Of a stretch of DNA of 64,000 bases, positions 6,178 through 52,897 are shown one piece after another. The number at the start of each line of letters is the position of its first letter. The first letter of the stretch is position 1. The stretch spans positions 24,022-88,021 of IMG/VR virus record IMGVR_UViG_3300008267_000092; one strand, written 5' to 3'. The position numbers and the translations under genes were made by a program. Below the pieces are notes generated by a model. It was not told where the DNA came from. It did no database searches and saw nothing but the letters and a program-made list of their open reading frames with translations. The stretch is from a virus (taxonomy: Duplodnaviria > Heunggongvirae > Uroviricota > Caudoviricetes > Crassvirales).

Positions 6178-6681
6178 ATGGAAAATAATAAGAAAAAATT
6201 ATTAAACGATAAAGTTATTAAAACTTTAAATTACAGAATACAACAAGAAGAATATTCTTCAAGAATTTACGAACAATTATCATTATGGTTAAACAATAAA
6301 GGATATTTAAATTTTGCAGAGTTGTTTAAGAAATATTCAGAAGAAGAATTAGTACATGCTAAATTTTCTAAAGATTTTCTATTAGATTATGGTATTACAC
6401 CTTGTCTTGAAGCGTTACCTTCTCCTGAAATGGAAATAGAGTCATTATTAGACGTTTTAGAAGCAGCTTATGAACATGAGCTATTAGTTACTCAACAATG
6501 TGAAGAACTTGCCTCTATGGCTTTAAAAGAAGGTAATCACGTGTTATATCAATTAGCATTAAAGTACTGTGCTGAACAACAAGAAGAGATTGGTAAAGTT
6601 ATTACAAATTTAGATATTTATAAACTAAGTACTGACATGTTGGTTATTGACCATTATGTAGGTGAAAAACTGTTAGGATAA
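6178..6681 (+). CDS. ftn: ferritin (FtnA-like non-heme ferritin, ferroxidase-centre residues conserved)
   Basis: 167 aa; collinear similarity to E. coli FtnA from memory (LNYRIQQEEYSS / SEEELVHAKF / YEHELLVTQQCEELA / AEQQEE), with the ferroxidase-centre positions (E, ExxH, E, QxxE) occupied. Confidence 0.8.
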   Translation: MENNKKKLLNDKVIKTLNYRIQQEEYSSRIYEQLSLWLNNKGYLNFAELFKKYSEEELVHAKFSKDFLLDYGITPCLEALPSPEMEIESLLDVLEAAYEHELLVTQQCEELASMALKEGNHVLYQLALKYCAEQQEEIGKVITNLDIYKLSTDMLVIDHYVGEKLLG

Positions 6682-10857: not shown

Positions 10858-11028
10858 TTATTTAATTTGTATCTTTAATTCGTCAACAATCATCCATTGA
10901 CAATCATTAGAATTAAGATTTACTTCTTCAGATTCTATAAAATCTTCACCATTTTCCCATATATTAATATCATAATCATAAACAAATACATCAGATGTTC
11001 TAAAATCTAAAATTATAATTTTTTTCAT
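10858..11028 (-). CDS. small hypothetical protein (56 aa), start overlaps thyX stop (ATGA)
   Basis: unlisted ORF read from reverse complement; translational-coupling geometry. Confidence 0.3.
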   Translation of the reverse strand: MKKIIILDFRTSDVFVYDYDINIWENGEDFIESEEVNLNSNDCQWMIVDELKIQIK

Positions 11029-11678
11029 AGTTTAAATGCGTTAATAGTGTGTTTAAATGGATTACCTTCTATATTCTTAACAAGTTCTAACATTTCTGTT
11101 ACTATATCCCTAGTTTCTTTTTGTGTGTCTTCTTTTAAACGAAGATTACACATGTGAAAAAATGCCAATAAACTACCAGTCCATATAAACTCAGTTTCTA
11201 AAGATAAAGGTAACACAGAACGAGCTTGTTCTTTTGATATACCTAAATCAAGCAAGTCTATGTACGCTTTTTTACACCACTCTATAACTTTAGATTGTAT
11301 TTGCTTAGCGTGTTCATTATCAGCACCGTTTAAATTTTCTCCTGAACCTTGCTTACTACTTTTTGACTGTAATCTAAATTGTTCAATCTTATAGTAACTA
11401 TCTGAGAAATCCACATAACGACCTGATATACTATTTACAGAAATACCTACTTGATGTTTATGCAATTGTCTTTCTACATATATAGGACATTTAATCCTAA
11501 ATTGTAGTTGGGGATGTCTAAATGGACTTGTGTGTTTGTGATTTACTAAATAGTTAATTAATTTAGCATTTTGTTCTTCTTCATAGTTAGAAGACTCTTT
11601 TCCGTAGCTAACACGAGCTACATTTGAAACCATTTCATCACTTCCATAATGTGATAACAGTTCTACTGTATTATTCAT
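11025..11678 (-). CDS. thyX: flavin-dependent thymidylate synthase ThyX
   Basis: ARVSYGK N-terminal motif, RHPQ...S, SVNSISGRYVDF (ThyX S-x-R-Y signature). Confidence 0.8.
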   Translation of the reverse strand: MNNTVELLSHYGSDEMVSNVARVSYGKESSNYEEEQNAKLINYLVNHKHTSPFRHPQLQFRIKCPIYVERQLHKHQVGISVNSISGRYVDFSDSYYKIEQFRLQSKSSKQGSGENLNGADNEHAKQIQSKVIEWCKKAYIDLLDLGISKEQARSVLPLSLETEFIWTGSLLAFFHMCNLRLKEDTQKETRDIVTEMLELVKNIEGNPFKHTINAFKL

Positions 11679-18457: not shown

Positions 18458-19002
18458 TGTACATTAATTGTTTCGTTTTTAATGTCAATTGCATCACCTA
18501 ATTCTGAATTGTCATCAAGTTTAACCTTCAATTTCTTTTCAAGATCTTCTTTTAGACGTTTATCCTTATATAATATTTTTTTAACACTTAATACAAAGTT
18601 AACACCTACATGATTTTTACCATATATTTCTGTCCAAAAAGATAAAATTTGTTGTTTAGCATCTTCTTTAAATTCTGAATATCTACCGTCAATAAAGGAT
18701 CTGTATTCATGTAAATATTCTTTAGGGAATTTGAATATGTATAACACTTGATTGTTAGGTAGATCTATTGATTTTTGAAACAATTCATTATTTATTAAAC
18801 GATGCTCATACGCTGTAAATTCAGGATTTTTAAATTCAAAATCATGTGTTATAAAAAAACAATCAATGTAATCATCACCGTCATTTATTAAATATGTATT
18901 ATCAACATTATCAAAAAACTTTTTTTCAATACCTATTAAAGGTGCAATTAGTGGTAAGAGATATGTCTTACTCTTATTATATTTAGGTTTACTCATTAAC
19001 AT
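18454..19002 (-). CDS. hypothetical protein
   Basis: 182 aa ORF. Confidence 0.4.
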   Translation of the reverse strand: MLMSKPKYNKSKTYLLPLIAPLIGIEKKFFDNVDNTYLINDGDDYIDCFFITHDFEFKNPEFTAYEHRLINNELFQKSIDLPNNQVLYIFKFPKEYLHEYRSFIDGRYSEFKEDAKQQILSFWTEIYGKNHVGVNFVLSVKKILYKDKRLKEDLEKKLKVKLDDNSELGDAIDIKNETINVQ

Positions 19003-20017
19003 CTATAAAATCATCATTTAAATTTAAACTTCCTTTATTTTCATATATTTCTTGAGCATAATCAAATTGATTTGTTTTCCAATGAAAATATATTTTTTCA
19101 ATATTCTCATTTAGACCTACATATTTAAAACCTGATCTCGTTTTAAAACCATTTATAGCTGCATCATACCATTTATCAGTTAATGTATATATAAACGGAA
19201 TGTTTTCAGATTTACCTAAGTAAATATATTTAAACGGTAATAATGTGTAATTTTTTAATTTAAATTGTTCACATATTTGATTAAATGCTAGTGTATATAC
19301 TGCTCCTTGATAATAGTATCTATAATCAATGAAACTTTTCATAAAACTTTCACCTTTACCTGAACCCGTTTTTAAATCGTAAAATTGTACGGTTTTATCG
19401 GTGTGATTAATTGTTAACTTATCAATATACCCTCTAAATACAAAATACATATACTTATTTTCAAAATATACCTGATAATGATTTTCTAAATCATTGTTAA
19501 ATATATCTTTAGAATGACTATGTGTAAGTAATGTATCTACAGCTAATTCCGCAGACGCATATTCTGAAGTTGTTACTACTAACTTATCTTTAATACTTAA
19601 TTTTGTTTTAACATATTCCCAAAATTCAGGTTTATCAAAGTTTGCAATTAATTTTACTTCATCTTTAACATTACTCCAAAATGTGTTATTTTTTACAATT
19701 TTTAAGACGGTTGTTAAATCTGGTGTACTATCATAATTCTCAATAATTATGTCGGCTAATTGACCTAACATTGCTGACGGTTTATTACCATTAAACAATG
19801 CATATTTATCATTAAACAATGTTGAACCCGTCATTCTATCTGTTAAAATATCATCAACTAATGAACCATGTTTAATACCTTCGTTTTCTACAAACGATCT
19901 TCTAATTAAAGCTTGAGGTCCATTTCTATCAAAATCAGACACTCTTGTGTAACTTAACTGTAAGTCTATTTTTTCAGTATCACTAAGTAGTGAATCTAAC
20001 TTACTTTCTATCTCCAT
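18989..20017 (-). CDS. PD-(D/E)xK RecB/Cas4-like nuclease
   Basis: GYIDKLT (motif II), FYDLKTGSG (D-x-K-T-G motif III), QGAVY (QxxxY). Confidence 0.55.
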   Translation of the reverse strand: MEIESKLDSLLSDTEKIDLQLSYTRVSDFDRNGPQALIRRSFVENEGIKHGSLVDDILTDRMTGSTLFNDKYALFNGNKPSAMLGQLADIIIENYDSTPDLTTVLKIVKNNTFWSNVKDEVKLIANFDKPEFWEYVKTKLSIKDKLVVTTSEYASAELAVDTLLTHSHSKDIFNNDLENHYQVYFENKYMYFVFRGYIDKLTINHTDKTVQFYDLKTGSGKGESFMKSFIDYRYYYQGAVYTLAFNQICEQFKLKNYTLLPFKYIYLGKSENIPFIYTLTDKWYDAAINGFKTRSGFKYVGLNENIEKIYFHWKTNQFDYAQEIYENKGSLNLNDDFIDVNE

Positions 20018-20020
20018 TTA

Positions 20021-20467
20021 TTAGTTTATTTTAATATACACACCAGATTTTTCTTTATCTATTGTGTAAGCGTGATTGTTAATTTTTAAAGGATATGGTA
20101 AAAGATATCTCATGTTGTCATCTTCAATAATATTGTGTGCAACCATTAAATCTTGTATAATTTGTGTTGCATTATTAAAGTCAAAATCTCTTTTACTATC
20201 TCTTACAAAATGAAAACCTACATCAAAAGGTTCCTTTTTACCTTTCATAGCTTTTTCAAATTGAGGTCTTAGTTTTTCAAACTCATTAGGTCTTGTAGCA
20301 TAACCTTTTACTGTCTTTTTACTAGAAGAGTATTGTTGAATGCCAAGTAATCTTAAATATTTAGTAACAGTTGTTGATGCAAAAATACCTCTTGAGGTTT
20401 TTATTTTACTATTTTTTAACGATGGTACGTTATATGGTATAAAAATTAAATTTTCATATTCATTCAT
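20021..20467 (-). CDS. hypothetical protein
   Basis: 148 aa ORF. Confidence 0.4.
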   Translation of the reverse strand: MNEYENLIFIPYNVPSLKNSKIKTSRGIFASTTVTKYLRLLGIQQYSSSKKTVKGYATRPNEFEKLRPQFEKAMKGKKEPFDVGFHFVRDSKRDFDFNNATQIIQDLMVAHNIIEDDNMRYLLPYPLKINNHAYTIDKEKSGVYIKIN

Positions 20468-20528: not shown

Positions 20529-21998
20529 TTATATAAAAGGGTTAGATAAATAATCCGAAATGAGATCTTCTACACTTGTTGTAGTTGAAATTTCAGATAT
20601 TTTACTATACCAGTCAAAATAACTATGATTACCATAGTCTTCCTCATCAAATAATACACCTTTTAATTTTGAAAAATGGCAAGTATTCTCTTGTCTAGTT
20701 AAAATATAGTTGACCAGTCTATCATATATTGAGTATCTGTAAGATATATTATTTCTATTACAGTAATCTTTAATAATATACATTAAGCGATTTTGATTCT
20801 CACTACAATTTAATGCATTACCTTCTAGAATATTTTTAGTGTTTATTTTAGCATAATCTACAAGTATTGTACTTAATAATAAAAACATTGAAATTTTAGA
20901 CATATCATATGTTGGAGTATGAATTCTAAATTCAATTGTAGTTTTATTACCAAAAATTAAAGGTATTAAATTATGTATGAAATAACGATGTTTTATATTC
21001 CACTTTTGATTACCACTTGGATCATTTGGGTGATGAGTAACATTATTTAAATCGTTATTAAAATCATAAAATGAAACACCTCCTGACAAATAACTAAATA
21101 AAACATTAAAGTTATAATCAATATTTTTAGAAGTTATTACAGGATCCATTTTTGAAATTAAAGAATATGTAGGATAAGGTTTACTATAATTCTTATTTTT
21201 AATATTAAAATTATATTTTTTATATAACGGAAATAATTCAAAAATGTCGTCTTGTATAAAAGTTGTTAATTTAAAAAATGCTAAAATAAATTCTTTTGTT
21301 CTAGGTACATTTCCAATATGCATATGAAGAGCACAGCTATTATCAAATTCAGTTCTTTCTTTTAGAGCTTTTGTTGTATCAAATAGTGTCTGCACCCCTT
21401 TTACACCTTGTAATGGAATTGTTACATATTCAATACCTGAAATACTACCGTCACGTAAAGGAATTAATCCTAATTTATCTGTAATTCTTTGAGGTATGTA
21501 ACCTTTAATTGTTTCAAATTCAAGTCCAAAAGTGTAATCTTTTAAAGCTTTTCCAACCTCATTAGAGCCATGTAATACTTCAAATTCATATTTTGAGTTA
21601 TATCTCTGAATGTGTGAAATGTGAAAATAAAGACCCGATGATAATTCTTCACGATATTTTTTATTTTGAATTAAAATGTTTTCATTCATCGCAGGTATCA
21701 CGATTCCGTGTTTATTTTCAAAATACATAACGTGATTTGATCTCTGGAACCAACCTATTTTGTCATTTTCAATTAAACCTGAGAGTAAATTTGCATTTTT
21801 AAGAGTGTATTTCTTAAATGTATTACAATATACAATATTACCTTTTTCAACACGGTAATACTTATCATTAATTTTATAACAATCCCCTGAATTTTCAATT
21901 TCAGGATCTCCGATTTTATAATATTTACCTTCAAAAATTCTTGTTTTAGAAATAGGTAGAGACTCACCACTTACAGTTGTTACTATTTTTTCAATCAT
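20529..21998 (-). CDS. GCS2-like carboxylate-amine (COOH-NH2) ligase / amidoligase paralog with ~145 aa N-terminal extension
   Basis: FGLEFET (GvEeEf-like N motif) and ALHMHIGN (GxHxH motif), same motif pair as 23889-24686. Confidence 0.45.
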   Translation of the reverse strand: MIEKIVTTVSGESLPISKTRIFEGKYYKIGDPEIENSGDCYKINDKYYRVEKGNIVYCNTFKKYTLKNANLLSGLIENDKIGWFQRSNHVMYFENKHGIVIPAMNENILIQNKKYREELSSGLYFHISHIQRYNSKYEFEVLHGSNEVGKALKDYTFGLEFETIKGYIPQRITDKLGLIPLRDGSISGIEYVTIPLQGVKGVQTLFDTTKALKERTEFDNSCALHMHIGNVPRTKEFILAFFKLTTFIQDDIFELFPLYKKYNFNIKNKNYSKPYPTYSLISKMDPVITSKNIDYNFNVLFSYLSGGVSFYDFNNDLNNVTHHPNDPSGNQKWNIKHRYFIHNLIPLIFGNKTTIEFRIHTPTYDMSKISMFLLLSTILVDYAKINTKNILEGNALNCSENQNRLMYIIKDYCNRNNISYRYSIYDRLVNYILTRQENTCHFSKLKGVLFDEEDYGNHSYFDWYSKISEISTTTSVEDLISDYLSNPFI

Positions 21999-22005
21999 TG
22001 TTTAA

Positions 22006-23877
22006 TTATATTTTTAAAAAGTTATTCATTTGGTGTAAAGAATCATCAAGAAAATCAATTATATGTCCTGCTACATAATTATCTTTATATTTTTCTAATT
22101 TACTTTTAAGTTTTTGAAAATCTGAAAAACTTTCAGCTAAGTCTTCATCTGCAAGATTTAAAACTAATTCAGAAATTGATTCTTCTTCATCAATTAAAGT
22201 ATTTAATATGTCTTCATCAGAATCAGGTTCTACTACAACTTTCATAAATGAAGGATTATCCCAAGCATCTAATTTTGCTAATTCAGCATCTATAACTTTA
22301 TCAATTTCAGAAACTTCTTCAACAGGAAGTTCTTTTGAAAGATATGTATTTACAGAAGAACTTACAAGATTACCTAAACTTATAACATATTTCTTTTCGG
22401 AACCTAATGGACAAATTTGACCACTAAAAGGTTTTCCATTAAATAATATATTTTGATGTTTCACATCACAAACATCTTTATCTAAATCAATTACAGGGTG
22501 TGTTGATAAGCTTGATAAAGTGTGAAAATCTAAATACTTTCTATTTTTACCTAAATATCTAGTATATGCAATATTATAATCAATCGAAGTTCTTAAATTA
22601 ACACCTTCTACAAAATAAAATAAACTTGGATTTAGGCAGTTTTCACTTTTAAATGGTATAAATTGATTTTTAAGATTTGGATTAACTGCTTCAAACGCAC
22701 CATTAATAAATACTTTATCAATATGAAAATAAAAACGTTCCGTTGCCTCTTTAATATTAGATTCTAAATAATGAAAACCATAACCAGGTATCCATGTATA
22801 AATACCTGTAATAGGTAAACCTTTTTTTAAATATCTTAATTTATTAAAATATACCTTGTTATCATAACTACCAAGTGATTGTAAAGTGGTTTCGTTATAA
22901 ATATTAGAAGTTACAACCTTACTTTCAATAACAGAGTTAGAAGGACTTATAGTTTTTGTAGATTCATTACTTTTGTAACCATAATCGTAGTCCCAATCTT
23001 CATATCCATAATTATGTCCTGAATAGTTTCTTCCTGAATATTGTTTATTATAATTTGTAGAATAATCTTCTTTTTGATACGCTTTTTTACGACTAACTTT
23101 AATTTTTTTAGCGTTTTTAAAATCTCCATCTGTAATAACATATACTGTATTACTGTCTATCGCTTTAATTTTAGTATCATCATCACTAATTGTTTTCAAT
23201 GCTGATTCTAATGAAGACACGTACATACTATTATCATTTTCAAGATATACAAATAATGGACGTTCTTCTACCATTTTTGAATCATTATCTGAAGATAAAC
23301 TTTTTGAAGCACCTTTCCATAAATAACCTACATTGGGTGTATCTGTGTCTGTCCAAAATAAAGCAGCACCTCCAATATATTCACTCAAAACTTTAAAATT
23401 ATTTGAACGATATAATATTTCCAATAATAATTCAGAATCAATTTTAGTTCTAACTGAATCTACAATATTATTTTGATAAGTTGTTAATTTATAATCTGCA
23501 GTTAATTCAACATTGTATTTTTTAGCTAATTCTGTATGATTTGAAAGTGTTCCATTATGACAACCTATAAATTTAAAACCTGAATTAACATTATTTACAT
23601 CAAACCCAAAAGGATGGGCATTATAAGAATTTACCGCACCTACACTTGATTGGCGAGTGTGTCCAATTACAATAGGGTATTCAAAAGGTTTAATATTATT
23701 TTCAACTATAAAATCATAATATAATTTATTTTTATCTAAACCTATATAAATTTCTCCATCATAAGATACACCACAAGAACTTTTACCTCGTTCTACATTA
23801 TATATACCTAATTTGTCAAATTTATCTTTATTAAAATCTTTAGGATCTTTTCCTAAATAACCAAATATTCCACACAT
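22006..23877 (-). CDS. class-II glutamine amidotransferase (Ntn hydrolase) domain protein with Tyr/Asn-rich linker and acidic C-terminal tail
   Basis: N-terminal MCGIFGY (Cys2 nucleophile hallmark of GATase-II/Ntn); no PP-loop SGGxDS so not AsnB/QueC; C-terminal DSDEDILNTLIDEEES. Confidence 0.65.
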   Translation of the reverse strand: MCGIFGYLGKDPKDFNKDKFDKLGIYNVERGKSSCGVSYDGEIYIGLDKNKLYYDFIVENNIKPFEYPIVIGHTRQSSVGAVNSYNAHPFGFDVNNVNSGFKFIGCHNGTLSNHTELAKKYNVELTADYKLTTYQNNIVDSVRTKIDSELLLEILYRSNNFKVLSEYIGGAALFWTDTDTPNVGYLWKGASKSLSSDNDSKMVEERPLFVYLENDNSMYVSSLESALKTISDDDTKIKAIDSNTVYVITDGDFKNAKKIKVSRKKAYQKEDYSTNYNKQYSGRNYSGHNYGYEDWDYDYGYKSNESTKTISPSNSVIESKVVTSNIYNETTLQSLGSYDNKVYFNKLRYLKKGLPITGIYTWIPGYGFHYLESNIKEATERFYFHIDKVFINGAFEAVNPNLKNQFIPFKSENCLNPSLFYFVEGVNLRTSIDYNIAYTRYLGKNRKYLDFHTLSSLSTHPVIDLDKDVCDVKHQNILFNGKPFSGQICPLGSEKKYVISLGNLVSSSVNTYLSKELPVEEVSEIDKVIDAELAKLDAWDNPSFMKVVVEPDSDEDILNTLIDEEESISELVLNLADEDLAESFSDFQKLKSKLEKYKDNYVAGHIIDFLDDSLHQMNNFLKI

Positions 23878-23888
23878 AATTTATTTTT

Positions 23889-24686
23889 TTAATTTGTTAA
23901 AATGTAACTATCTTTTTCAATTTGTCTAAGTAGTAGTTTTGCTAGTTTTCTATCATTGTTATCAATTGCTTCCACTACTTGAGCTGAATATTTATCAATA
24001 TAGTGGGTATGCTTACCGTCTAATACGTGTTCTACAGCTTTTATTGTTTGATCAAATACCCATTTAATCAATGTGTTGTCGTGTATCCAAAAATTAGATA
24101 ATTGACGACATTCTAATCCAAAAAGTTTAGGTCTAAAAGAACCAGCTTTACCATATAGTTCTCTTCTTCGTTCATCGTTATCCAATAATAATGAAGGTAA
24201 TGTTACAAAAATATCAAACATTTTTACAATATTGACAGTTTTTTCAAATTCAGGATCTGGATAACCTATATGAATATGTCCGCCCACACATCTCAAATTA
24301 GTATTTGTATCAGGTTTAGGGTTTATCATTTCCGTATATACGTTGTAATCAGGTTCACAACCAAATAATTGTGCTTGTTCAGATTGCAAATGTATAGGGT
24401 TTATTTCATCTGAAGCTTTTGTAGATAGTTCAAATCCGTGTGAATTTGCAATGACTTCAAGATATTCTTTAACATAATTAATGTTTTCAATATATTCATC
24501 TGCAGTACTACAAGGAGGAATGTTAAATTCAAATGCAATATTATCGGTTTGAATGAAATGACCCTTATCTGTAATTGGATAAGGATCATCTTTAGTTCCA
24601 GGAATTAATCCTACTGCAGATACAATTTCAGTATCATTTTCAATAAATACTTCAGGGTCACTACCTAATTTAATGTCGTATTTCAT
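23889..24686 (-). CDS. GCS2-like carboxylate-amine ligase (amidoligase)
   Basis: KLGSDPEVFIE N-terminal motif and VGGHIHIGYP (GxHxH) typical of glutamate-cysteine-ligase family 2 / phage amidoligases. Confidence 0.5.
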   Translation of the reverse strand: MKYDIKLGSDPEVFIENDTEIVSAVGLIPGTKDDPYPITDKGHFIQTDNIAFEFNIPPCSTADEYIENINYVKEYLEVIANSHGFELSTKASDEINPIHLQSEQAQLFGCEPDYNVYTEMINPKPDTNTNLRCVGGHIHIGYPDPEFEKTVNIVKMFDIFVTLPSLLLDNDERRRELYGKAGSFRPKLFGLECRQLSNFWIHDNTLIKWVFDQTIKAVEHVLDGKHTHYIDKYSAQVVEAIDNNDRKLAKLLLRQIEKDSYILTN

Positions 24687-24705
24687 ATTTTTAATAATGT
24701 TTAAG

Positions 24706-25398
24706 TTATAGTAATTTTGAGTTTAAAAGTTTATCGTTAATTAAATTTAAAGTCATTTTGACTGTAGCATGTTCTTCACTCATCCATTCAGGATGACCTT
24801 GTATTGCCAAAGCTCTTGAATTAGGATACATTACAATTTCAGGTTCTACAAAGTTAGAAGGTAATTGAATTTCTTCATTATCCCCATTCAAATAAGTATC
24901 ACTATTAAAATATGTTGAATGATAAAGAATTTCATAAAATTCACTTTTAAGTTTAAAAGGGTACATCATTTGATGATGATCTCCTGACATTGTATATTCT
25001 TCAGCTCTACCATTAGATTTTGAAATTGTATGTGTGCAATTTCTATGTCCTGTTGTATGTTGGATTAACGCACCACCTTCCATCACTGTTAACAATTGAG
25101 CACCTCTACAAATTCCTAAAAAGGGAACCATTCCTCTAAAGTTAAGATATACAGTTCCTTCAACTAAATCTCGTTGTGTATCACAATTTGTGTATTTACC
25201 CTTTTTTTCTTCATATTTTCGAGGTTCTACATCTGCACCTCCTGTAAAAACGATTAGTGAAGGAGTATTTTCATAATCTACATCTGTTGTAAAATTTAAA
25301 ACTTCAACATCAAACATTACGTTTAGGTAGTTGACACAGGATTTATCTGTGATACCATCCGCAAACATTATTTTTAATTTTTGTTTATTACTTTCCAT
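24706..25398 (-). CDS. class-I glutamine amidotransferase-like / peptidase C26 (gamma-glutamyl hydrolase-like)
   Basis: GICRGAQLL (nucleophile elbow Cys), QGHPE (His-Glu). Confidence 0.65.
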   Translation of the reverse strand: MESNKQKLKIMFADGITDKSCVNYLNVMFDVEVLNFTTDVDYENTPSLIVFTGGADVEPRKYEEKKGKYTNCDTQRDLVEGTVYLNFRGMVPFLGICRGAQLLTVMEGGALIQHTTGHRNCTHTISKSNGRAEEYTMSGDHHQMMYPFKLKSEFYEILYHSTYFNSDTYLNGDNEEIQLPSNFVEPEIVMYPNSRALAIQGHPEWMSEEHATVKMTLNLINDKLLNSKLL

Positions 25399-26290
25399 TT
25401 TTAATTGCTTTTTTAATTATTAATTTTGGTAACATTTCAATATATTTTTGAGCACATATTGAAATATCTTCATTTTCTAAATTACCCATAGAACTTGCAC
25501 TATTACATTCTAAAAGTATGTAATCTTGATATTCTCTAGGTTCACCTTTTTTAGTATAGGGTGTTTGTACTTTAACATCAAATGATAAAATATCAGCACC
25601 TATACTAATCAGAGCGTTTACACAGTCATTAACAATATCATCCCAGCTATTTGGTTTATGGAAAGATTCATTTTCCTCTAAAAACCATACGCAGATATCG
25701 TCATGTCGTCGCCATTTTTCATTTTCAGGAACATTTTCCTTCAATGCTTTTCTACAGGTATAGAAGCAACCATCTTCTGTTACATGCAATCTAAATTCAT
25801 GACCATAGTTTACAAATTTTTCAAAGATATAATTACTAAGATTTTTACCTTCCATCCAAGATTCTAATTCTTCTTGAGATTTAATTAAAGTATTACCTTT
25901 ACCTTTAGAACCATAATGAGCTTTAGCTACAATAGGAAAAGGTAAGTTTTCAATTTCTACACGAGAGCTTTCAATATTTACAAAAAAATTTTGAGCATAT
26001 ATAAACATTTCTGCAGTTTTAACACCTGCTTCAGTAAACTTCTGTTTCATTAGAAGCTTATTTGCAGATATTTTAACTGCTTGAATGGTATTAATTTCAA
26101 TACGATTACCTCCATTATCAATAGTATCTTCTACCTCTGTAGATGATCCAAATCTTATTACCGATTTATATGGTAGCAAATTAAATTTTTTAAATTTAGA
26201 TCTGAATATATCATGACTTGGATGTCTTGATAAAATCATAGGTCTAAATAATGTAAACTTACTTTTACGACGTGTCATTAATTTGTTCAT
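25388..26290 (-). CDS. ATP-grasp ligase (RimK/glutathione synthetase-like)
   Basis: FPIVAKAHYGSKGKGNTLIKSQEEL, EFRLHV, ILLECNSASSMG (Mg-binding E-x-N). Confidence 0.7.
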   Translation of the reverse strand: MNKLMTRRKSKFTLFRPMILSRHPSHDIFRSKFKKFNLLPYKSVIRFGSSTEVEDTIDNGGNRIEINTIQAVKISANKLLMKQKFTEAGVKTAEMFIYAQNFFVNIESSRVEIENLPFPIVAKAHYGSKGKGNTLIKSQEELESWMEGKNLSNYIFEKFVNYGHEFRLHVTEDGCFYTCRKALKENVPENEKWRRHDDICVWFLEENESFHKPNSWDDIVNDCVNALISIGADILSFDVKVQTPYTKKGEPREYQDYILLECNSASSMGNLENEDISICAQKYIEMLPKLIIKKAIKNGK

Positions 26291-26961
26291 TATAAAGTTA
26301 ATAAGTGATTAATTAATTTGATAGCAAATTCATCGTGAATTTCTTCTGGATGATATTGTACAGTGTGTGCAGGGTAATAAGGATAATATGAAAGAGCTTC
26401 AACTTCTCGATCTTTTTCATGTACAGCTAAAACTGTAGCCGTGGTCGGTACTCTATCAACTGTTTGATGATGAATACTATTAATTTTAAATTTTGTAGGT
26501 ATTTCATTTAAAAATTTAAAATCTTCAATTTTTCTATTTATTAATGACACTTCATGTACTAATTTTCCACGATCAGAATCATTTGTTTCGTGATACATAT
26601 CTTGAACGAGTGTACCTCCAAAGTGAACTGCTAGAGATTGATGACCTCTACATATTCCAAATATTGGAATACCATCTAAAATATATTTAGGTAATAATAC
26701 ACGATCAAATCGCTCTCTAAAAGGACACGATTTACCCATATATAATGAAAGTTCATCACTTTCTTTTAAATATCTTGAAGGGTCCACATCTGGTCCTCCA
26801 GGTAATACTAATAAATCTAAATCTTTACGAGTTTCCATTTCATTATGGACAATCATTGTAACATAGCCAAATTGACTAAAAAAGTTTAAGTATGCTTCAG
26901 GTATTCCATATCCTCCAGCTACAGGGTATGCTACAATTCCAATATTTTTTAATGATTTCAT
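26290..26961 (-). CDS. class-I glutamine amidotransferase-like / peptidase C26
   Basis: GICRGHQ nucleophile elbow, QYHPEE His-Glu dyad. Confidence 0.7.
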   Translation of the reverse strand: MKSLKNIGIVAYPVAGGYGIPEAYLNFFSQFGYVTMIVHNEMETRKDLDLLVLPGGPDVDPSRYLKESDELSLYMGKSCPFRERFDRVLLPKYILDGIPIFGICRGHQSLAVHFGGTLVQDMYHETNDSDRGKLVHEVSLINRKIEDFKFLNEIPTKFKINSIHHQTVDRVPTTATVLAVHEKDREVEALSYYPYYPAHTVQYHPEEIHDEFAIKLINHLLTL

Positions 26962-26972
26962 GTTTATTTATT

Positions 26973-27395
26973 TTAATAGGTTAAATGTTTTGTTTCGTGA
27001 TAATCTTTCCAATCTCCAGATTCTACAATCTTTTGTAAATTTAAATTTTCTAATACATCGTTGTATAGATATACATAAATTTCACCATAAGGTGAATCAA
27101 TTTTACGACGATTATAATGATTTGTTGCAGAATTAAAAGAGTAATACCCTTCTAGACAATCTAATTTTTCTAAAGTATTTTCTGTAACTTCATAAACTTC
27201 AACGCTTATAGAAGTGTTACCTTTATTAATAATTGCAGGGTATGATCCTAAATCATACATTGAAAATTCAGGTAACGTTTGAAACGTACCCACTAATTTA
27301 GAATTACCTAATATTTTATGATTTGATAGTCCTTCACGAAGACTACCATACACCCCTACTAATATAGGGGAATTTGTTTGTTTGTTATTGTGCAT
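26973..27395 (-). CDS. gamma-glutamyl cyclotransferase (GGCT/AIG2-like)
   Basis: VGVYGSLREG, VEVYEV, LDCLEGY (catalytic Glu) signature. Confidence 0.75.
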   Translation of the reverse strand: MHNNKQTNSPILVGVYGSLREGLSNHKILGNSKLVGTFQTLPEFSMYDLGSYPAIINKGNTSISVEVYEVTENTLEKLDCLEGYYSFNSATNHYNRRKIDSPYGEIYVYLYNDVLENLNLQKIVESGDWKDYHETKHLTY

Positions 27396-27411: not shown

Positions 27412-28428
27412 TTAGAATGGTAACATCATTTCCGTTAATAATATTCTAGATGCTTCTTTTATAGATGTGTTTTTAATTAGGTCACTAAAATCTTTAGATT
27501 TATATTTATCATCAATATAAATATCTATTAATCCAAATTCTGTAGCTAACTTGTCACCAAATTGTCTACCCCAATTTATTTCTTTGTCAAAATCGTTATC
27601 ATAAAAAGAATAAATGTCAATAAATCTTTCATTTAATTGTTCAAACACATGTCTTTTTGGTAATACATTTTCACATTGTAAGGCTACAGCAGGTATTTTA
27701 GCATTTTCATAAATAGCCATTACATCTTTTAAAGATTTAGTAATGATTAAATCAGTACCTTTATCAGGTAATTGTGACCACCCTTGCCAAATAGTATTGT
27801 TGTGACTATTTAACCATTTGTATGAACTATTATGTGGTTGATAAATTTTATAAGTTTCAACACTATCCTTATATTCAATAAACACATACGCGTATTTATC
27901 TGCAGTAATTATCTTACCGTTTATAAAGAAATGTGAAATTGGTTGTACATTAAATTTTTCTAATGTGGTTCGAGATATACCAAATTGTTGCCAAAATAAT
28001 ATATCGTGAGTTAACCAATTACGACTTTTTTTCAATAACTCAAATGTTGTAGCATTAGCTAAAAATTCATCACGATTGATACTTTTAATACTATTAGTAG
28101 GAGACTTTACAATTTGTTTAACTATAAAGTCATTTTCCATATCAAAATCAATTGCGATTTTACTTAACGCTTCAAAATAAGTCATATTAAATTTCATTTG
28201 TACAAATTTAATACAATCACCTGAACCTAATACGAAATCTTTAAAACATATTTCACCACTCTGACCTTTAAAGAATCCAAATGAAGGATTTCTTTCATTT
28301 CTTAATGGTGAATAAATCAACCGACCTGGTATAATTTCTTCATCAATATACTTTTGAAATATTTCAATATCTGTTACATATTTTAATAAATCTTGTTTAG
28401 TAATCATTTGTTTATTCAGATTTATCAT
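27412..28428 (-). CDS. DNA primase-like protein (degenerate CHC2 zinc finger + TOPRIM-like region)
   Basis: SPLRNERNPSFGFF...ICFKDFVLGSGDCIKFV resembles DnaG zinc-binding segment (CPFHxExTPSF...CFGCG..GDvIkFv) with Cys/His losses. Confidence 0.45.
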   Translation of the reverse strand: MINLNKQMITKQDLLKYVTDIEIFQKYIDEEIIPGRLIYSPLRNERNPSFGFFKGQSGEICFKDFVLGSGDCIKFVQMKFNMTYFEALSKIAIDFDMENDFIVKQIVKSPTNSIKSINRDEFLANATTFELLKKSRNWLTHDILFWQQFGISRTTLEKFNVQPISHFFINGKIITADKYAYVFIEYKDSVETYKIYQPHNSSYKWLNSHNNTIWQGWSQLPDKGTDLIITKSLKDVMAIYENAKIPAVALQCENVLPKRHVFEQLNERFIDIYSFYDNDFDKEINWGRQFGDKLATEFGLIDIYIDDKYKSKDFSDLIKNTSIKEASRILLTEMMLPF

Positions 28429-31585: not shown

Positions 31586-32395
31586 TTATCTTACTGTCTT
31601 AACAAATGGTAAACCACTACCACCAGCATAGGTTGATGGTAAAACACCATTCCAACGGTTAATTGTTTTTTCTTGTAACACTTCTGGTGTTAAACCTCTA
31701 GAACGAATAATAGATTGTTCTGTTTTTAAAATTTCCAATTCATTCTTTTTCTTTTGTTCTGAAATTAATTGGTCCAATACTGAAATATTTGTATTTACTT
31801 CATTACGATTATCAATTTTTTCTTTAACTTTCTTAGAGAAATCTAAATTTAAACTGAAACTGATTAATTCTAAACCAGATTTTTCAAATTCTTTTTTAAC
31901 AATATCTTGTACATATTGTTCAAATTTTAACGAACCTCCATTCGCCATTAATTGTTCTGTTGTGTAACTTCTAGAAGCCTCTTTAATTACATCATAAATT
32001 CTTGGTTCTAGTACGTTATCTTGCAAAGCGGACATAAAATTATCTCCAGAACCTAATCTAGAATTTTGAAATACAACGTCTACTACCCTAGTTTCAATAA
32101 CTTTAAACGAATATAAAGGTTTTGATGTAAATGCTGTATTATCAGCAGCCTTGATATTTAAAATTCGTTCAGTTCCTTCATCAGTTGTATACTGTCCTCT
32201 CTGTTCCCACGCTGGTACTTGGAATAATTCAGTTCCAGGAGCAATCGTAACAACCTTACCTTGTTGTTTAGAATAATCTGATTTACCATTCTTACCATAA
32301 TTTTCCATCAACACCCCATAATAATTAGGGGCAACCCTTGTTGTACATGAAGTTAACAACACAAAAACCAACATAACACTTAATAATTTTTTCAT
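31586..32395 (-). CDS. SPFH/band-7-like lipoprotein
   Basis: lipoprotein signal MKKLLSVMLVFVLLTSC; central SPFH-like region, C-terminal coiled coil. Confidence 0.4.
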   Translation of the reverse strand: MKKLLSVMLVFVLLTSCTTRVAPNYYGVLMENYGKNGKSDYSKQQGKVVTIAPGTELFQVPAWEQRGQYTTDEGTERILNIKAADNTAFTSKPLYSFKVIETRVVDVVFQNSRLGSGDNFMSALQDNVLEPRIYDVIKEASRSYTTEQLMANGGSLKFEQYVQDIVKKEFEKSGLELISFSLNLDFSKKVKEKIDNRNEVNTNISVLDQLISEQKKKNELEILKTEQSIIRSRGLTPEVLQEKTINRWNGVLPSTYAGGSGLPFVKTVR

Positions 32396-38225: not shown

Positions 38226-38966
38226 TTAATCCAGTATGTTTCCATCTGGCTGGACTATATCATTATTTAAAACTTTAACCCATTTAAAACCATACATTGA
38301 TGGTTTTTCACCACTACAACACGCGTAAATATTATGTACTTTATAGGTGGGATTATCAATTATAATATCCTTTACCTTTTTCCATTCTTTTATTAGTGTT
38401 GTACCGTTTTTAGAATATTGTAAAATTGTGTATTTTGTGTGAATATCCGATACCTTTTTCTTCATTTGTTCTTTTATTTCTGGATTTTCTTTCCAAAATT
38501 TAGATGAAGATTTACTTATTTTAATTCTTTCTTCAGGATTTTCATATCTTTTTTTATGTGAAATACTCATTTTAATACGTGTATTTTCATGACAAATCAT
38601 ATTTGTAGAAGAATCTCTTCTCAAATTGTATCCTAATTTAGAATCTGTTGTTTTGTAAAAATCTATCCAAAACAATTCTTTTTCTTTAATTATTGATTCA
38701 AAATCTTTAATATTTTTATCAATAATTTCAAGTACAAAATATTCAAATTTTTCTTTTCCGTATTTCCACCACGCATTTATAAAATATTGATTTTCTCTTT
38801 TGGGGTCTTTAGCGTTAAGTCCTCCAATATGATTATATATTCGTTGTCTAATATTTATAGATTTTCCAATATATTTTTTATCCGTTTCAATATTTCTAAT
38901 GCAGTAAATACCACAAAGACCCTCATGTAATTTATTTGTTTTCATATAAAATTTTATTTTATACAA
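38226..38966 (-). CDS. GIY-YIG homing endonuclease
   Basis: GIYCIRNIETDKKYIGKSINIRQRIYNH (GIY..YIG..R..H). Confidence 0.8.
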   Translation of the reverse strand: MYKIKFYMKTNKLHEGLCGIYCIRNIETDKKYIGKSINIRQRIYNHIGGLNAKDPKRENQYFINAWWKYGKEKFEYFVLEIIDKNIKDFESIIKEKELFWIDFYKTTDSKLGYNLRRDSSTNMICHENTRIKMSISHKKRYENPEERIKISKSSSKFWKENPEIKEQMKKKVSDIHTKYTILQYSKNGTTLIKEWKKVKDIIIDNPTYKVHNIYACCSGEKPSMYGFKWVKVLNNDIVQPDGNILD

Positions 38967-41195: not shown

Positions 41196-41696
41196 TTATT
41201 TATTAATGTAAGTTCTACCACAAGAAATATCTCGAATTGTAGTGTATGGTAAATTATATTGAATTGCTAAATTTCTTAAATTTAACTTTTCATTATTTTT
41301 TCTACGAGTTTTAATAATATTGTAAATAGTTAAAGCTATTTCATTATTTATTAACATGTTTGGTGGTGTATTTCCTTTTTCAAATCTTTTACCTATTGGT
41401 ACAATCATTCTGTTTTTATTATAACAATCTTTCATATTTTCACTTTGTGTACCTAAAAATAAATGATTAGGATTGACACATTTACGGTTATCACATTTAT
41501 GACAAACATTTAATGTTTTATCTGTAATTATACCATACGTTAACTCATAAGATAATCTATGAGAACTATGTGTTTTTTCTTTTGTTTTAAACGCACCGTA
41601 TCCATTTAATCTGCATGATGCAGTCCATTCCCAACAATCATCTTCTGATTTAATATTTACTTTATCCCAGAATTTTTTAATTTGTTGTTCATTCAT
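41196..41696 (-). CDS. HNH homing endonuclease
   Basis: [23 protein letters not shown] (His-Me finger). Confidence 0.8.
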
Positions 41697-41730: not shown

Positions 41731-41788
41731 CGTCTCCAAACATCATAGGATATACCCTGAGTTTGGAGACGGTGGGATTCGAACCCAC
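41731..41788 (-). pseudogene. tRNA 3'-half remnant (T-arm + 3' acceptor strand) fused to an 11-bp hairpin in the 5' leader of the HNH gene
   Basis: reverse complement GTGGGTTCGAATCCCAC-CGTCTCCA...; CGTCTCCAAAC pairs with downstream GTTTGGAGACG; no D/anticodon arm upstream. Confidence 0.5.
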
Positions 41789-42207
41789 GTCGATCAATGC
41801 GTTTGTTATATAATTTTATACAGCTTTTTGTAGTATTTAATCTTTAATGTCCCTTAAACACTACTAAATGTGGACAGCTATGGCAATGTTATACTCTAGC
41901 CAGTGTTGAGTTTGATTTGGGATTAGCGCACACGCGAATTCTAATTTACCAAATCATTTTAAACTATGCTGCCATTAATACTTCTTCTTTAGAAGAGTTA
42001 ATCAATGAAAAAACTTTAGCCATATTGGCTTTTGCTTGATTTTTGCCGTTTAAAATATTCACCTTAGTTTACAGTTATCTCTCTGGCTGAATTATATAAT
42101 TACTGACACAACCTCAAAGCCAGTCGTCCCCTTATTAATTGTTTAAAGTACAATCATAAACTTATTATTAGAAGGTGACACTTAATGTAATCACCTTCTA
42201 TAATTTA

Positions 42208-51430: not shown

Positions 51431-52897
51431 ATGGAAGAAATATATTTTAAAGAGGAAGCTAGAAATAAACTTTTAAGTGGTATAAATAAATTACACGATG
51501 CTGTAGCATCTACAATGGGACCAAATGGTAAGACGGTTATTATAAGTGATGTGTATGGTAAACCTAAAGTAACTAAAGATGGTGTATCTGTTGCAAGAGC
51601 GATTTCATTTAAAGATCCTGTTGAAAATATGGGTGCAGAATTAATCAAAGAAGTAGCAGAACTTACTGTAGATATCGCGGGAGATGGTACTACTACAGCT
51701 ACAGTTTTAGCTACTGCTTTTATTAACAATTTAATAACCTTTGAATCTAAAGACATTAATAAAGCCTTTGATGAAATAATACCTAAAGTATTAGAACAAT
51801 TAAAAATAAATTCTAGAACATTGGAACGTGATAATATTAAACACGTTGCTACAATTTCTGCAAACAACGATATAACTATAGGTGAGGTTATTCAAAACGC
51901 ATATAACCATTCAGATATTATTAAAATTGAAGAATCAACATCTAATAGTGATATATTGGAATTAGTTGAGGGTATGCAGTTAGATGTATCTTATTTATCA
52001 AAAGCATTTGTAAATATTGATCGTAAAGCAGAATGTGAATTGACTAATCCACATGTATTAATTATAGATGGTAAACTTGAGAACTTAAAAGTTTTTGAAC
52101 AATTATTAAACACTGTTGCTGCAAACAACGAATCATTATTAATTATAACAGAACATGTTTCAGAACAAGTATTAAGAATGCTTGAAACAAATGCATTAAG
52201 CGGTAATATTAAACTATGTGTAATTAAATCACCTGGATTTGGACAACATAGAAAAGATTTACTGAAGGATATTGCAAAGTTTACACAATCTACAATTATA
52301 ACAGATTTAAGCAAACCTTATACGTTAAGTATTGCAGGTAAACTGCAGTCTGTAAGAGTTACTAAAAATAATTCTATCTTGGTTAAGGATTCATCAATAG
52401 ATGTTACAGAAGCAATTGCAGATTTAAATGAATTGTCTAAATCTATAGATCTATCTGAACACGATAAGGATTTGATTATCCAACGAAGAGATAGACTTAC
52501 AGGTAAGATATCAATCATTAAAGTTGGAGGTGTTTCTGAGATTGAGATGAAAGAACGTAAAGATAGATATGATGATGCGGTATTAGCTGTAGCCTGTGCA
52601 TTAGAAGAAGGAATTGTACAAGGTGCGGGTTTAGCATTATATCACAGTATTCAAAATGTTTATGATGTAAAATATGATGAAAAAACACCATATCATTTTA
52701 TAATGAAAAGTCTACTTTCACCATATGATAACATTTGTAAAAATGGGACATGTATTCCTGTAATGAGTAATATGTTTGATCAAAACATTATAGATCCACT
52801 TAAAGTTACAAGATGTGCATTAGAGAATGCAGTATCTGTAGCTAAAACAATATTATCAACAGACACAATTATTTTAAATGAGCGTCAATGGAGTTAA
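51431..52897 (+). CDS. groEL: GroEL/Cpn60-family chaperonin (488 aa, lacks C-terminal GGM tail)
   Basis: ARNKLLSGINKLHDAVASTMGPNGKTV...VTKDGVSVARAI...GDGTTTATVLA collinear with GroEL N-terminus/ATP-binding loop. Confidence 0.85.
   Translation: MEEIYFKEEARNKLLSGINKLHDAVASTMGPNGKTVIISDVYGKPKVTKDGVSVARAISFKDPVENMGAELIKEVAELTVDIAGDGTTTATVLATAFINNLITFESKDINKAFDEIIPKVLEQLKINSRTLERDNIKHVATISANNDITIGEVIQNAYNHSDIIKIEESTSNSDILELVEGMQLDVSYLSKAFVNIDRKAECELTNPHVLIIDGKLENLKVFEQLLNTVAANNESLLIITEHVSEQVLRMLETNALSGNIKLCVIKSPGFGQHRKDLLKDIAKFTQSTIITDLSKPYTLSIAGKLQSVRVTKNNSILVKDSSIDVTEAIADLNELSKSIDLSEHDKDLIIQRRDRLTGKISIIKVGGVSEIEMKERKDRYDDAVLAVACALEEGIVQGAGLALYHSIQNVYDVKYDEKTPYHFIMKSLLSPYDNICKNGTCIPVMSNMFDQNIIDPLKVTRCALENAVSVAKTILSTDTIILNERQWS

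Follow-up and report, generated by a model that had tools for sequence, protein, structure and literature searches.

A phage cassette found in phiEco32, LUZ24 and RIO-1-type phages has been described since 2009, and Iyer et al. 2009 and Hardies et al. 2013 are credited with its description. The cassette gave its name to the Pfam family PF14395, titled 'Phage phiEco32-like COOH.NH2 ligase-type 2', and was worded as a 'seven-gene peptidoglycan modification cassette' by Duhaime et al. 2017 (PMC5498523). The hypothesis published with the cassette description (PMC5498523, PMC10580990, PMC3890496) holds that a peptidoglycan stem-peptide precursor is the substrate, resulting in an altered envelope and blocked superinfection; this hypothesis was itself reached by inference only. 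No substrate, product or phenotype of the cassette is reported in the literature found, in agreement with the first-pass annotation, which had described the target as lacking experimental proof.

The cluster analysed here, which the first-pass annotation had put forward as a candidate peptide-tagging or DNA hypermodification system, is a copy of this known cassette. It lies in a 64-kb window (the whole stretch of DNA analysed) of a ~94-kb genome. The phage behind the window is uncultured and crAss-like; it is related to Cellulophaga phage phi14:2, and the two major capsid proteins share 63% identity. The enzyme families of the window (PF14395, PF12224, Ntn GATase, GATase-I, ATP-grasp and GGCT) are in common with those of the phiEco32, LUZ24-PaP3-tf, PA11, 7-11, RIO-1 and CW02 cassette, as are the conserved gene pairs and the location in the early/replication module beside the primase. 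Gene order differs, being C-g-A-g-L-N-M in the window and g-L-x-M-N-A(-C) in the phiEco32/LUZ24/RIO-1-type cassette (C, GGCT; g, GATase-I; A, ATP-grasp; L, PF14395 ligase; N, Ntn GATase; M, Amidoligase_2). The window also carries a second, divergent GATase-I and a different Ntn C-terminal domain, and it is missing a ~200-aa conserved protein that is located between the ligases in those phages. Identity of the PF14395 ligase to those of known cassette phages is at most 43%.

The closest cultured relative, phi14:2 (Crassvirales, Steigviridae; NC_021806), carries 5/7 of the cassette genes at the same position (g037-g041, RefSeq-annotated) and in the same order: primase, GGCT, ATP-grasp, PF14395 ligase, Ntn GATase and Amidoligase_2, followed by RusA, exonuclease and RNR. 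It has no class-I GATase gene, whereas the window has two; it differs further by a uracil-DNA glycosylase after the amidoligase, and the two Amidoligase_2 proteins are only 36% identical. The replicative module of phi14:2 belongs entirely to the early class and depends on the virion RNA polymerase for its transcription (bioRxiv 10.1101/2020.03.07.982082).

Position of the cluster

The first-pass annotation had described seven contiguous genes on one strand, and the ORFs were recovered at exactly those positions, all on the minus strand (Table 1). Adjacent ORFs overlap by at most 11 nt or lie at most 19 nt apart, and the cluster directly follows the primase, inside the replicative module. It had been placed next to ThyX, RNR and dUTPase; its real neighbours are instead the primase, the RusA-like resolvase and the PD-(D/E)XK exonuclease, with dUTPase and RNR 2-5 kb downstream. 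The position reflects conserved post-primase placement within the early replicative module rather than a tie to thymidylate genes.

Table 1 Features of the cassette and its surroundings, in window coordinates
Feature	Length (aa)	Position	Strand	Remark
Primase		27412-28428		immediate neighbour
AIG2/GGACT cyclotransferase (GGCT)	140	26973-27395	-	first gene past primase; accessory
Class-I GATase/Peptidase_C26-like, GAT1a	223	26290-26961	-	second, extra copy
ATP-grasp carboxylate-amine ligase	300	25388-26290	-	accessory
Class-I GATase/Peptidase_C26-like, GAT1b	230	24706-25398	-	core copy, directly upstream of PF14395 ligase
COOH-NH2 ligase type 2 (PF14395)	265	23889-24686	-	core; cassette anchor
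Ntn class-II GATase	623	22006-23877	-	core
Ntn GATase C-terminal domain	~200	22249-22926
Amidoligase_2 (PF12224)	489	20529-21998	-	core
RusA-like resolvase		20021-20467		immediate neighbour
PD-(D/E)XK exonuclease		18989-20017		neighbour
ThyX		11025-11678		9 kb from cluster

Enzyme families and catalytic residues

Profile searches (Pfam, PHROG), which the first-pass annotation had proposed as a check, supported its family call for each ORF and placed all seven in named families. Three belong to ATP-dependent carboxylate-amine ligase families (PF14395, PF12224 and ATP-grasp), and four to families that cleave glutamine or gamma-glutamyl amides (two C26/GATase-I proteins, one Ntn GATase and one GGCT). 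Catalytic residues were shown to be kept in 7/7 of the proteins, and the enzymes are predicted to be catalytically intact. None of the seven reached an NCBIfam equivalog cutoff, and homology therefore gives no indication of substrate specificity.

The PF14395 ligase scored 36 bits in Pfam (cutoff 25), matched phrog_3815 across its full length (1.2e-76), and was assigned as a minimal carboxylate-amine ligase of the glutamine-synthetase/GCS superfamily. Across 85 homologues, the invariant positions are D10, E12, E53, H137, R174, G179 and G182, with 98% conservation at R185, E192 and R194. Amidoligase_2 (PF12224, 29.6 bits, cutoff 22; phrog_2443, 1e-34) consists of a beta-rich N-terminal domain (residues 1-~115) and a ligase domain of the glutamine-synthetase/GCL/PafA fold. 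The two proteins, both previously called 'GCS2-like', have no BLASTP similarity to each other and are separate families with one fold. The GxHxH motif ascribed to both is present in the 265-aa ligase (G135-G-H137-I-H139), whereas Amidoligase_2 has A-L-H225-M-H227. Its G-L-E-F-E motif, described as N-terminal, is not so, since it is preceded by a 150-aa N-terminal domain and sits at residues 158-162. The Amidoligase_2 copy in the window has a 93-nt in-frame deletion (junction 21615/21614) and may be impaired, because the missing 31-aa segment includes a nearly invariant motif.

The N-terminal MCGIFGY of the Ntn GATase was confirmed. GATase_6 covers only the N-terminal ~180 aa (31.4 bits, cutoff 27); the overall layout is a glutaminase domain (residues 1-~265), a low-complexity linker, a conserved C-terminal domain and an acidic tail. 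The PurF glutamine-site segments are retained complete, and a substrate with free alpha-amino and alpha-carboxylate groups would be consistent with the Ntn domain. The C-terminal domain matched no known fold and has no catalytic-looking invariant residues.

Both GATase-I proteins score higher with Peptidase_C26 than with GATase (GAT1a, 1.4e-31 and 1.1e-19; GAT1b, 4.2e-15 and 1.9e-11, with phrog_7218 at 2.6e-26), and they are only 26% identical. GAT1a residues C104, H204 and E206, read as a Cys-His-Glu triad, are kept along with H164-H165-Q166 (conservation of 95% or more across 109 homologues); C97, H202 and E204 are conserved in GAT1b. The top PDB sequence matches of GAT1a are Lin1909, TrpG, GuaA-A, PuuD and gamma-glutamyl peptidase 1. 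The GGCT (Pfam PF06094, 3e-23; phrog_2520, 1.6e-25) has a YGSL motif at residues 16-19 and a 100% conserved E66 (39 homologues), which we take, from knowledge of the family, to be the catalytic Glu. The ATP-grasp ligase barely exceeds the cutoff of Pfam PF02222 (2e-6; 28.1 bits against 27), scores 20.5 against 21 with the RimK profile and 39.5 against 143 with NCBIfam rimK_fam, and matches phrog_2599 (2.3e-20). Its K78, E165, R167, K181, D238, E261 and N263 are 100% conserved (64 homologues), and it can be placed at superfamily level only, with the RimK and PurK profiles nearest.

Conservation of the cassette across loci

With the PF14395 ligase as anchor, we surveyed 85 loci. The co-occurrence of Ntn GATase (84/85), Amidoligase_2 (82/85), GATase-I (81/85), ATP-grasp (64/85) and GGCT (34/85) indicates that the seven-gene grouping is not due to chance. 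The core consists of GATase-I, PF14395 ligase, Ntn GATase and Amidoligase_2, with ATP-grasp and GGCT as accessory members; some jumbo-phage contigs carry the four core genes only. Since the two accessory genes are absent at many loci, the full pathway logic cannot depend on them. GATase-I lies within 300 nt of the PF14395 ligase in 70/81 loci, and Ntn GATase and Amidoligase_2 are equally close in 81/82; both adjacent pairs persist although their order is rearranged between lineages. In 26/29 loci, no more than 300 nt separates GGCT from the primase; two or three GATase-I copies occur in 25/85, and the gene order of the window recurs in the IMG/VR loci L007, L009, L011 and L021. At every locus compared, the cassette lies in the replication/nucleotide module.

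Homologues of the PF14395 ligase were found in 314 phage records (identity at most 43%), and the family forms 4,936 clusters when grouped at 50% identity; almost all of these are single-domain proteins of 250-290 aa. Among 185,579 cellular species genomes, only 25 loci were found, mostly on MAG contigs; the ligase is all but restricted to phage sequence. Named isolate hosts of PF14395 phages, among the 100 matches listed, are all Gram-negative or other diderm bacteria. This apparent limit could partly be an effect of which phage lineages swap genes.

Candidate functions

Our preferred reading, to which we give a probability of roughly 0.45, is that of an early-expressed cassette building and trimming amide bonds of the gamma-glutamyl type on something other than DNA, the likeliest substrate being a small metabolite (an amine or a peptide) or a peptidoglycan stem-peptide precursor. 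Early in infection, the ligases would use ATP to couple an amine with the gamma-carboxyl of glutamate or with a comparable carboxylate; the gamma-glutamyl group would then be stripped or transferred by the thiol amidohydrolases paired with the ligases and by the cyclotransferase. Ligases that attach, combined with hydrolases and a cyclotransferase that remove or transfer, therefore suggest build-and-trim chemistry, by which gamma-glutamyl-type amide (isopeptide) bonds would be made and trimmed in the host cytoplasm. The earlier idea that the cluster forms amide bonds, hydrolyses gamma-glutamyl ones and serves recycling fits the confirmed families.

Ligase/hydrolase operon pairs of GS-like and GATase-I-like proteins include PuuA/PuuD, AtdA1/AtdA2 and IpuC/IpuF; EgtA/EgtC combines a GCS with an Ntn amidohydrolase, and BtrJ/BtrG an ATP-grasp with a GGCT-like protein. 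In these pathways, the gamma-glutamyl group serves as a temporary handle. By analogy, each ligase type in the window would have its matching amide-cleaving type. However, no window protein reaches the family cutoff of these enzymes, and oxidase, carrier-protein and sulfoxide-synthase partners are missing here.

Peptide tagging, suggested in the first-pass annotation, is rather unlikely. The ligases would put glutamate or a short peptide on host or phage proteins, as in RimK polyglutamylation or PafA pupylation, with the hydrolases as erasers or tag-maturing enzymes. The window holds no tag gene, no Pup-like gene, and no proteasome or Mpa; PafA and Dop have no sequence-level similarity to its proteins, and GCL and GS match almost equally.

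The role of the GATase-type proteins could also be to donate ammonia and not to hydrolyse gamma-glutamyl compounds. We consider it unlikely that two glutamine-dependent amidotransferase complexes are formed, one pairing GATase-I and the PF14395 ligase and the other pairing Ntn GATase and Amidoligase_2, in which the glutaminase would supply ammonia, the ligase would activate a carboxylate as acyl-phosphate, and two carboxylates would become carboxamides. Near-universal pair adjacency despite changed pair order, the complete PurF-type glutamine site, and a C-terminal domain that has the features expected of a docking domain argue for such complexes. The diderm hosts (among the 100 matches listed) also favour them, a possible target being the free carboxyl groups on D-iso-Glu and meso-DAP in the Gram-negative peptidoglycan precursor. 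Such amidations are carried out in Gram-positives by MurT/GatD and AsnB1/LtsA, and diderms are usually without them. Against these complexes, Peptidase_C26 is a better fit than GATase for the GATase-I proteins, the GGCT is left without a role, and the known GS-like and GATase-I-like operon pairs are ligase/hydrolase pairs; we know of no characterised GS/GCL-fold ligase that draws ammonia from a partner glutaminase.

Degradation or re-routing of glutathione, gamma-glutamyl-polyamines or similar compounds, yielding free amino acids or polyamines for the phage, appears improbable. A GCS-like ligase, an ATP-grasp, a GGCT and a C26 gamma-glutamyl peptidase do match the gamma-glutamyl cycle, and the set also matches polyamine handling of the Puu/Pau type; PHROGs tags several members as auxiliary metabolic genes, and PuuD and GGP1 are among the structural-sequence matches. 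However, unlike auxiliary metabolic genes copied from hosts, the PF14395 ligase is nearly absent from cellular genomes; PuuD, GshA/B-type and RimK equivalog matches are all far under cutoff, no oxidase or dehydrogenase partners were found among the ORFs scanned, and Bacteroidota are generally considered to be without glutathione.

A nucleobase or nucleotide precursor with an appended amino acid or amine, which the first-pass annotation had held to be an equally plausible product, is highly improbable, and nothing in the analysis ties the cassette to DNA modification. Thymidine hypermodification clusters (5-HMUDK, aGPT-Pplase, PLP, radical-SAM) are likewise phage multi-enzyme clusters of the nucleotide/replication region, and amidoligase/amidotransferase Pfam matches lie beside 5-HMUDK/aGPT-Pplase genes on some viral metagenome contigs (Lee et al., PMC8989533). 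The invariable location of the cassette in the replication/nucleotide module and one sub-threshold NCBIfam match, to gamma-glutamyl-CDP-amidate hydrolase, also favour this reading. However, a Pfam scan of 37 ORFs in the window (the cluster and 30 others) detected no ThyA-type dUMP hydroxymethylase, TET/JBP, TGT/DpdA, kinase or glycosylase-like families; ThyX and dUTPase are encoded instead, constituting the canonical dTMP route. The cassette is common to many well-sequenced model phages, and virion DNA of one bearer, phage tf, was cut by RsaI, HpaI, EcoRV, SmaI and HaeIII and Sanger-sequenced directly (PMC3517423).

Gene content and conserved residues of the cluster

The ORF list contains seven packed minus-strand ORFs, whose junctions range from 11 nt of overlap to 19 nt of separation, at coordinates identical to those of the seven contiguous same-strand genes described in the first-pass annotation, and Pfam and PHROG searches agree with its family calls for all seven. 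Both ligases had been described there as GCS2-like, with a GxHxH motif and an N-terminal G-[SL]-[DE]-[PF]-E motif. Their family assignments hold, and the two share no BLASTP similarity with each other; of the two, the 265-aa ligase alone has GxHxH, with ALHMH in Amidoligase_2, and the other motif of Amidoligase_2, GLEFE, sits at residues 158-162, away from the N-terminus. Scanned for promoters and terminators, the sequence gave chance-level counts and no internal terminator of convincing quality.

Features of the cluster, of the surrounding window and of comparison loci, with supporting profile matches
Feature	Sequence	Coordinates	Strand	Match
GGACT/AIG2 cyclotransferase (GGCT)	window	26973-27395	-	3e-23
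Peptidase_C26/class-I GATase	window	26290-26961	-	1.4e-31
ATP-grasp	window	25388-26290	-	PF02222 28.1 bits vs 27 (weak); phrog_2599 2e-20
Peptidase_C26/class-I GATase	window	24706-25398	-	4.2e-15
COOH-NH2 ligase type 2, PF14395	window	23889-24686	-	36 bits vs cutoff 25; phrog_3815 1.2e-76, full length
Ntn class-II GATase	window	22006-23877	-	confined to N-terminal domain
Amidoligase_2, PF12224	window	20529-21998	-	phrog_2443 1e-34
Ferritin-like protein	window	6178-6681	+	Pfam Ferritin 3.3e-20
SPFH/Band-7 protein	window	31586-32395	-	
GIY-YIG endonuclease	window	38226-38966	-	
HNH endonuclease	window	41196-41696	-	
tmRNA, full-length	window	41763-42131	-	Rfam RF00023 55.3 bits vs gathering score 47
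GroEL-like chaperonin	window	51431-52897	+	phrog_5725 1.5e-122
NAD-salvage neighbours	L004 (Leptolyngbya phage Lbo-JY46)	148-10467		
NAD-salvage neighbours	L002 (Salmonella phage 7-11)	5-2568		
Conserved cassette protein(s), example	L001	5442-7343		
Conserved cassette protein(s), example	L031	10760-11374		
Conserved cassette protein(s), example	L005	8841-9311		

Strongly conserved residues are kept in all seven proteins (39-109 homologues each), with catalytic roles that we presume from family knowledge. The Cys-His-Glu set is conserved in the GATase-I copies, including the one adjoining the PF14395 ligase. In the ATP-grasp protein, K78, E165, R167, K181, D238, E261 and N263 are each 100% conserved, as is E66 in GGCT. 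Both ligases carry conserved Glu/His/Arg sets; in the PF14395 ligase D10, E12, E53, H137 and R174 are invariant, and R185, E192 and R194 are 98% conserved. Conserved residues of the Ntn domain comprise C2, R30, H73/R75, N108-G109 and D147, the first four of these sets aligning with the MCG, HRGQ, GHVR and HNG segments of E. coli PurF, which we take to be glutamine-site residues. Judging from this alignment, the Ntn domain should act on glutamine or on a gamma-glutamyl amide whose alpha-amino acid head is free. Peptidase_C26 is a better fit than GATase for the GATase-I proteins, which also match structures of PuuD and gamma-glutamyl peptidase. None of the seven proteins reached any NCBIfam equivalog cutoff, PADLOC gave no match for any of them, with none resembling a defence-system protein, and PDB sequence searches with both ligases returned no match.

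Compared with an otherwise near-identical NCBI contig (L110/P0121), whose Amidoligase_2 has 520 aa, the Amidoligase_2 of the window carries a 93-nt in-frame deletion (junction 21615/21614). The deleted segment, flanked by an imperfect direct repeat CACATT(T)CA, encodes RKKANAFIEIKKPSSEYKTSLPYDSKGRLDS; within this stretch is a motif that hardly varies among 30 homologues. The deletion may reflect natural variation or an error of assembly, and this copy of the enzyme may be impaired by it.

A cassette shared among tailed phages

The cluster is a fresh copy of a known phage cassette. As in the phiEco32-type cassette, the PF12224 amidoligase adjoins an Ntn GATase with an N-terminal Cys, a class-I GATase/Peptidase_C26 gene lies directly upstream of the PF14395 ligase, and ATP-grasp and AIG2/GGCT genes, which are accessory across the family, are found within the same block. 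In Cellulophaga phage phi14:2, the closest cultured relative, the series primase-GGCT-ATP-grasp-COOH.NH2 ligase-Ntn aminotransferase-amidoligase occupies the same position as in the window and is already named in RefSeq, and a related block in gut crAssphage cr108_1 is syntenic with the window. The PF14395 ligase is present in 314 phage records, phiEco32, PA11, LUZ24/PaP3/tf and 7-11 among them, and Pfam's own description of the family names phage phiEco32. COOH-NH2_lig, Amidoligase_2, GATase II, ATP-grasp and AIG2 genes were annotated beside primase/helicase in the LUZ24-like phage UFV-P2 in 2014 (PMC3890496). Duhaime et al. reported conservation of the cassette in RIO-1, phiEco32, 7-11, PA11, tf, MR299-2, LUZ24, PaP3 and CW02, with the hypothesis that it alters the cell surface and so prevents superinfection (PMC5498523); it is credited to Iyer et al. 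2009 in PMC10580990 as well. Our literature search, in which Iyer 2009 and Hardies 2013 are known second-hand, found no experimental substrate, product or phenotype for the cassette.

We compared 85 loci, comprising 80 from IMG/VR with aligned PF14395 ligases, four annotated phages and the window, with genes labelled by jackhmmer using the window proteins as queries. The Ntn GATase was found in 84/85 loci, Amidoligase_2 in 82/85, GATase-I in 81/85, ATP-grasp in 64/85 and GGCT in 34/85, with two or three GATase-I copies in 25 of them. The window order, primase-GGCT-GATase-ATP-grasp-GATase-ligase-Ntn-Amidoligase_2-RusA-exonuclease, is repeated in four individual loci (L007, L009, L011 and L021), and contigs of 160-350 kb carry a four-gene core only (GATase-I, PF14395 ligase, Ntn GATase and Amidoligase_2). 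In spite of rearrangements, two pairs mostly stay within 300 nt: GATase-I and the PF14395 ligase in 70/81 loci, the Ntn GATase and Amidoligase_2 in 81/82. At 50% identity the PF14395 family splits into 4,936 clusters; a search for its gene fusions among 1.84 billion representatives gave nearly all single-domain proteins, with no evident partner, among the best 150 matches.

PF14395 is almost absent from cellular genomes, with 25 loci in 185,579 species genomes, most on MAG contigs; nine such contigs measure 41-161 kb, and the MAG contigs are taken to be candidate mis-binned phage contigs. Among 100 phage rows listed, all named isolate hosts are diderm, namely Proteobacteria and, through phi14:2 and Lbo-JY46, Bacteroidota and a cyanobacterium. 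The carriers span crAss-like phages, LUZ24-, phiEco32-, PA11- and 7-11-like podoviruses, and contigs in the size range of jumbo phages (160-350 kb). The cassette is among the most widespread tailed-phage enzyme modules without a known product. Solving it would explain the early effect on the host of many phages that infect Gram-negative bacteria, some of them candidates for therapy and others abundant in the gut or the sea. To this question the window contributes one more crAss-like example, of marine type, along with comparative facts on the four-gene core, on the pairing of ligase and hydrolase genes and on the diderm hosts of isolates; the cultured carriers phi14:2, phiEco32 and LUZ24 already make it testable, and there the window adds nothing.

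Cassettes of other lineages contain three conserved protein families of ~330 aa (17 loci), ~200 aa (15) and ~150 aa (9), all absent from the cassette of the window and lacking any Pfam match. The idea that they represent a detached Ntn C-terminal domain was rejected because hhalign probabilities were <1%. In two unrelated phages, PRPP synthetase and nicotinate/nicotinamide phosphoribosyltransferase genes (NAD salvage) lie beside the cassette or a few kb from it; neither enzyme was found in the window.

Predicted chemistry and candidate substrates

The family assignments support a cassette devoted to gamma-glutamyl-type amide chemistry, in which three ATP-dependent ligases would make, and four enzymes would cleave, gamma-glutamyl-type amides. 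In PuuA/PuuD, AtdA1/AtdA2, EgtA/EgtC and BtrJ/BtrG, the same enzyme types form pairs, one partner attaching a transient gamma-glutamyl handle and the other removing it. We favor a non-DNA small molecule or a peptidoglycan precursor as the substrate, with a probability of about 0.45. The cassette differs from the Puu/Pau pathway in that the PuuD model NF008471 scored 44.6 and 28.2 against a cutoff of 266, and no oxidoreductases that could be Puu/Pau-type oxidase/dehydrogenase partners were found among the cluster neighbours. Its likeness to peptidoglycan amidation by MurT/GatD is a functional analogy only; none of the seven proteins matched a Mur-ligase domain. The virion RNA polymerase of phi14:2 transcribes the early gene class, to which the entire replicative module belongs (bioRxiv 10.1101/2020.03.07.982082); by analogy with this one phage, the cassette of the window probably acts early, in the cytoplasm.

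Protein tagging, close to one of the activities first proposed for the cluster, is unlikely. The ATP-grasp protein resembles RimK at the superfamily level only, scoring below cutoff for RimK-family models (Pfam RimK, 20.5 vs 21; NCBIfam TIGR00768, 39.5 vs 143), and similarity of the ligases to PafA/Dop is confined to the fold, no better than that to GCL or GS. The window also has no Pup-like tag gene, and none of its ORFs of at least 30 aa ends in GGQ, GGE, GQ or GE. A variant of the favored chemistry, which we rank next as rather improbable, is that each conserved pair works as a glutamine-dependent amidotransferase, two carboxylates being amidated in all; the adjacency data fit such pairs, but we know of no precedent for them in this ligase fold.

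More speculative still, and a long shot in our estimate, is that the phage-restricted four-gene core makes a previously unknown gamma-glutamyl-linked molecule, for example a conjugate of a nucleotide or cofactor, or an envelope precursor that has been amidated. In phages of diderm bacteria it would have a general role in takeover or counter-defence. The Ntn GATase of this core has a C-terminal domain without a known fold. If the long shot holds, the metabolite or modification made by these phages would be of a new class, and no mere variant of a cellular pathway.

DNA hypermodification, which the first-pass annotation held equally plausible, is highly improbable: although amidoligase/amidotransferase matches lie beside 5-HMUDK/aGPT-Pplase genes on some metagenomic contigs (PMC8989533), the 37 ORFs scanned, from a window covering about two thirds of the genome, gave no Thymidylat_synt or TET_JBP match and, for the 7-deazaguanine route, no TGT or QueC Pfam match, the window encoding ThyX (Thy1, 1.4e-46) and dUTPase instead of a ThyA-type hydroxymethylase, while DNA of the cassette-carrying phage tf is restriction-digestible and was Sanger-sequenced directly (PMC3517423). 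Pfam/PHROG scans of this part of the genome gave no match to 5-HMUDK/aGPT-Pplase, with libraries that may not include these models and several ORFs matchless.

Genome setting

In its major capsid protein the window shares 63% identity with phi14:2 and 47% with gut crAss-like phages, and it encodes a crAss-type terminase and primase. The Ntn protein recurs at 100% identity on a JGI metagenome contig of 94,131 bp, the source contig, so that the window would represent some two thirds of the genome of an uncultured crAss-like (Steigviridae-like) phage, with ~28% GC. A near-identity DNA search with the cluster against 50,697 phage records gave no match, and a distant-mode search recovered short pieces only, in phi14:2 and in PF14395 genes. 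The cluster had been placed next to ThyX, RNR and dUTPase; ThyX is 9 kb off, and the flanks are formed by primase and by the RusA-like resolvase, PD-(D/E)XK exonuclease and RNR, as in a tailed-phage early/replication module.

The window yielded no tRNA genes; for its tmRNA, ARAGORN predicts the tag peptide to be GKNQAKANMAKVFSLINSSKEEVLMAA. The ferritin-like gene is flanked by two giant ORFs (2056 and 1373 aa), of which the first has a Dda-like helicase domain at its end, and the large terminase gene is directly downstream of the GroEL-like chaperonin gene. The early module further contains the SPFH/Band-7 gene and the two endonuclease genes, GIY-YIG and HNH, which may encode homing endonucleases.
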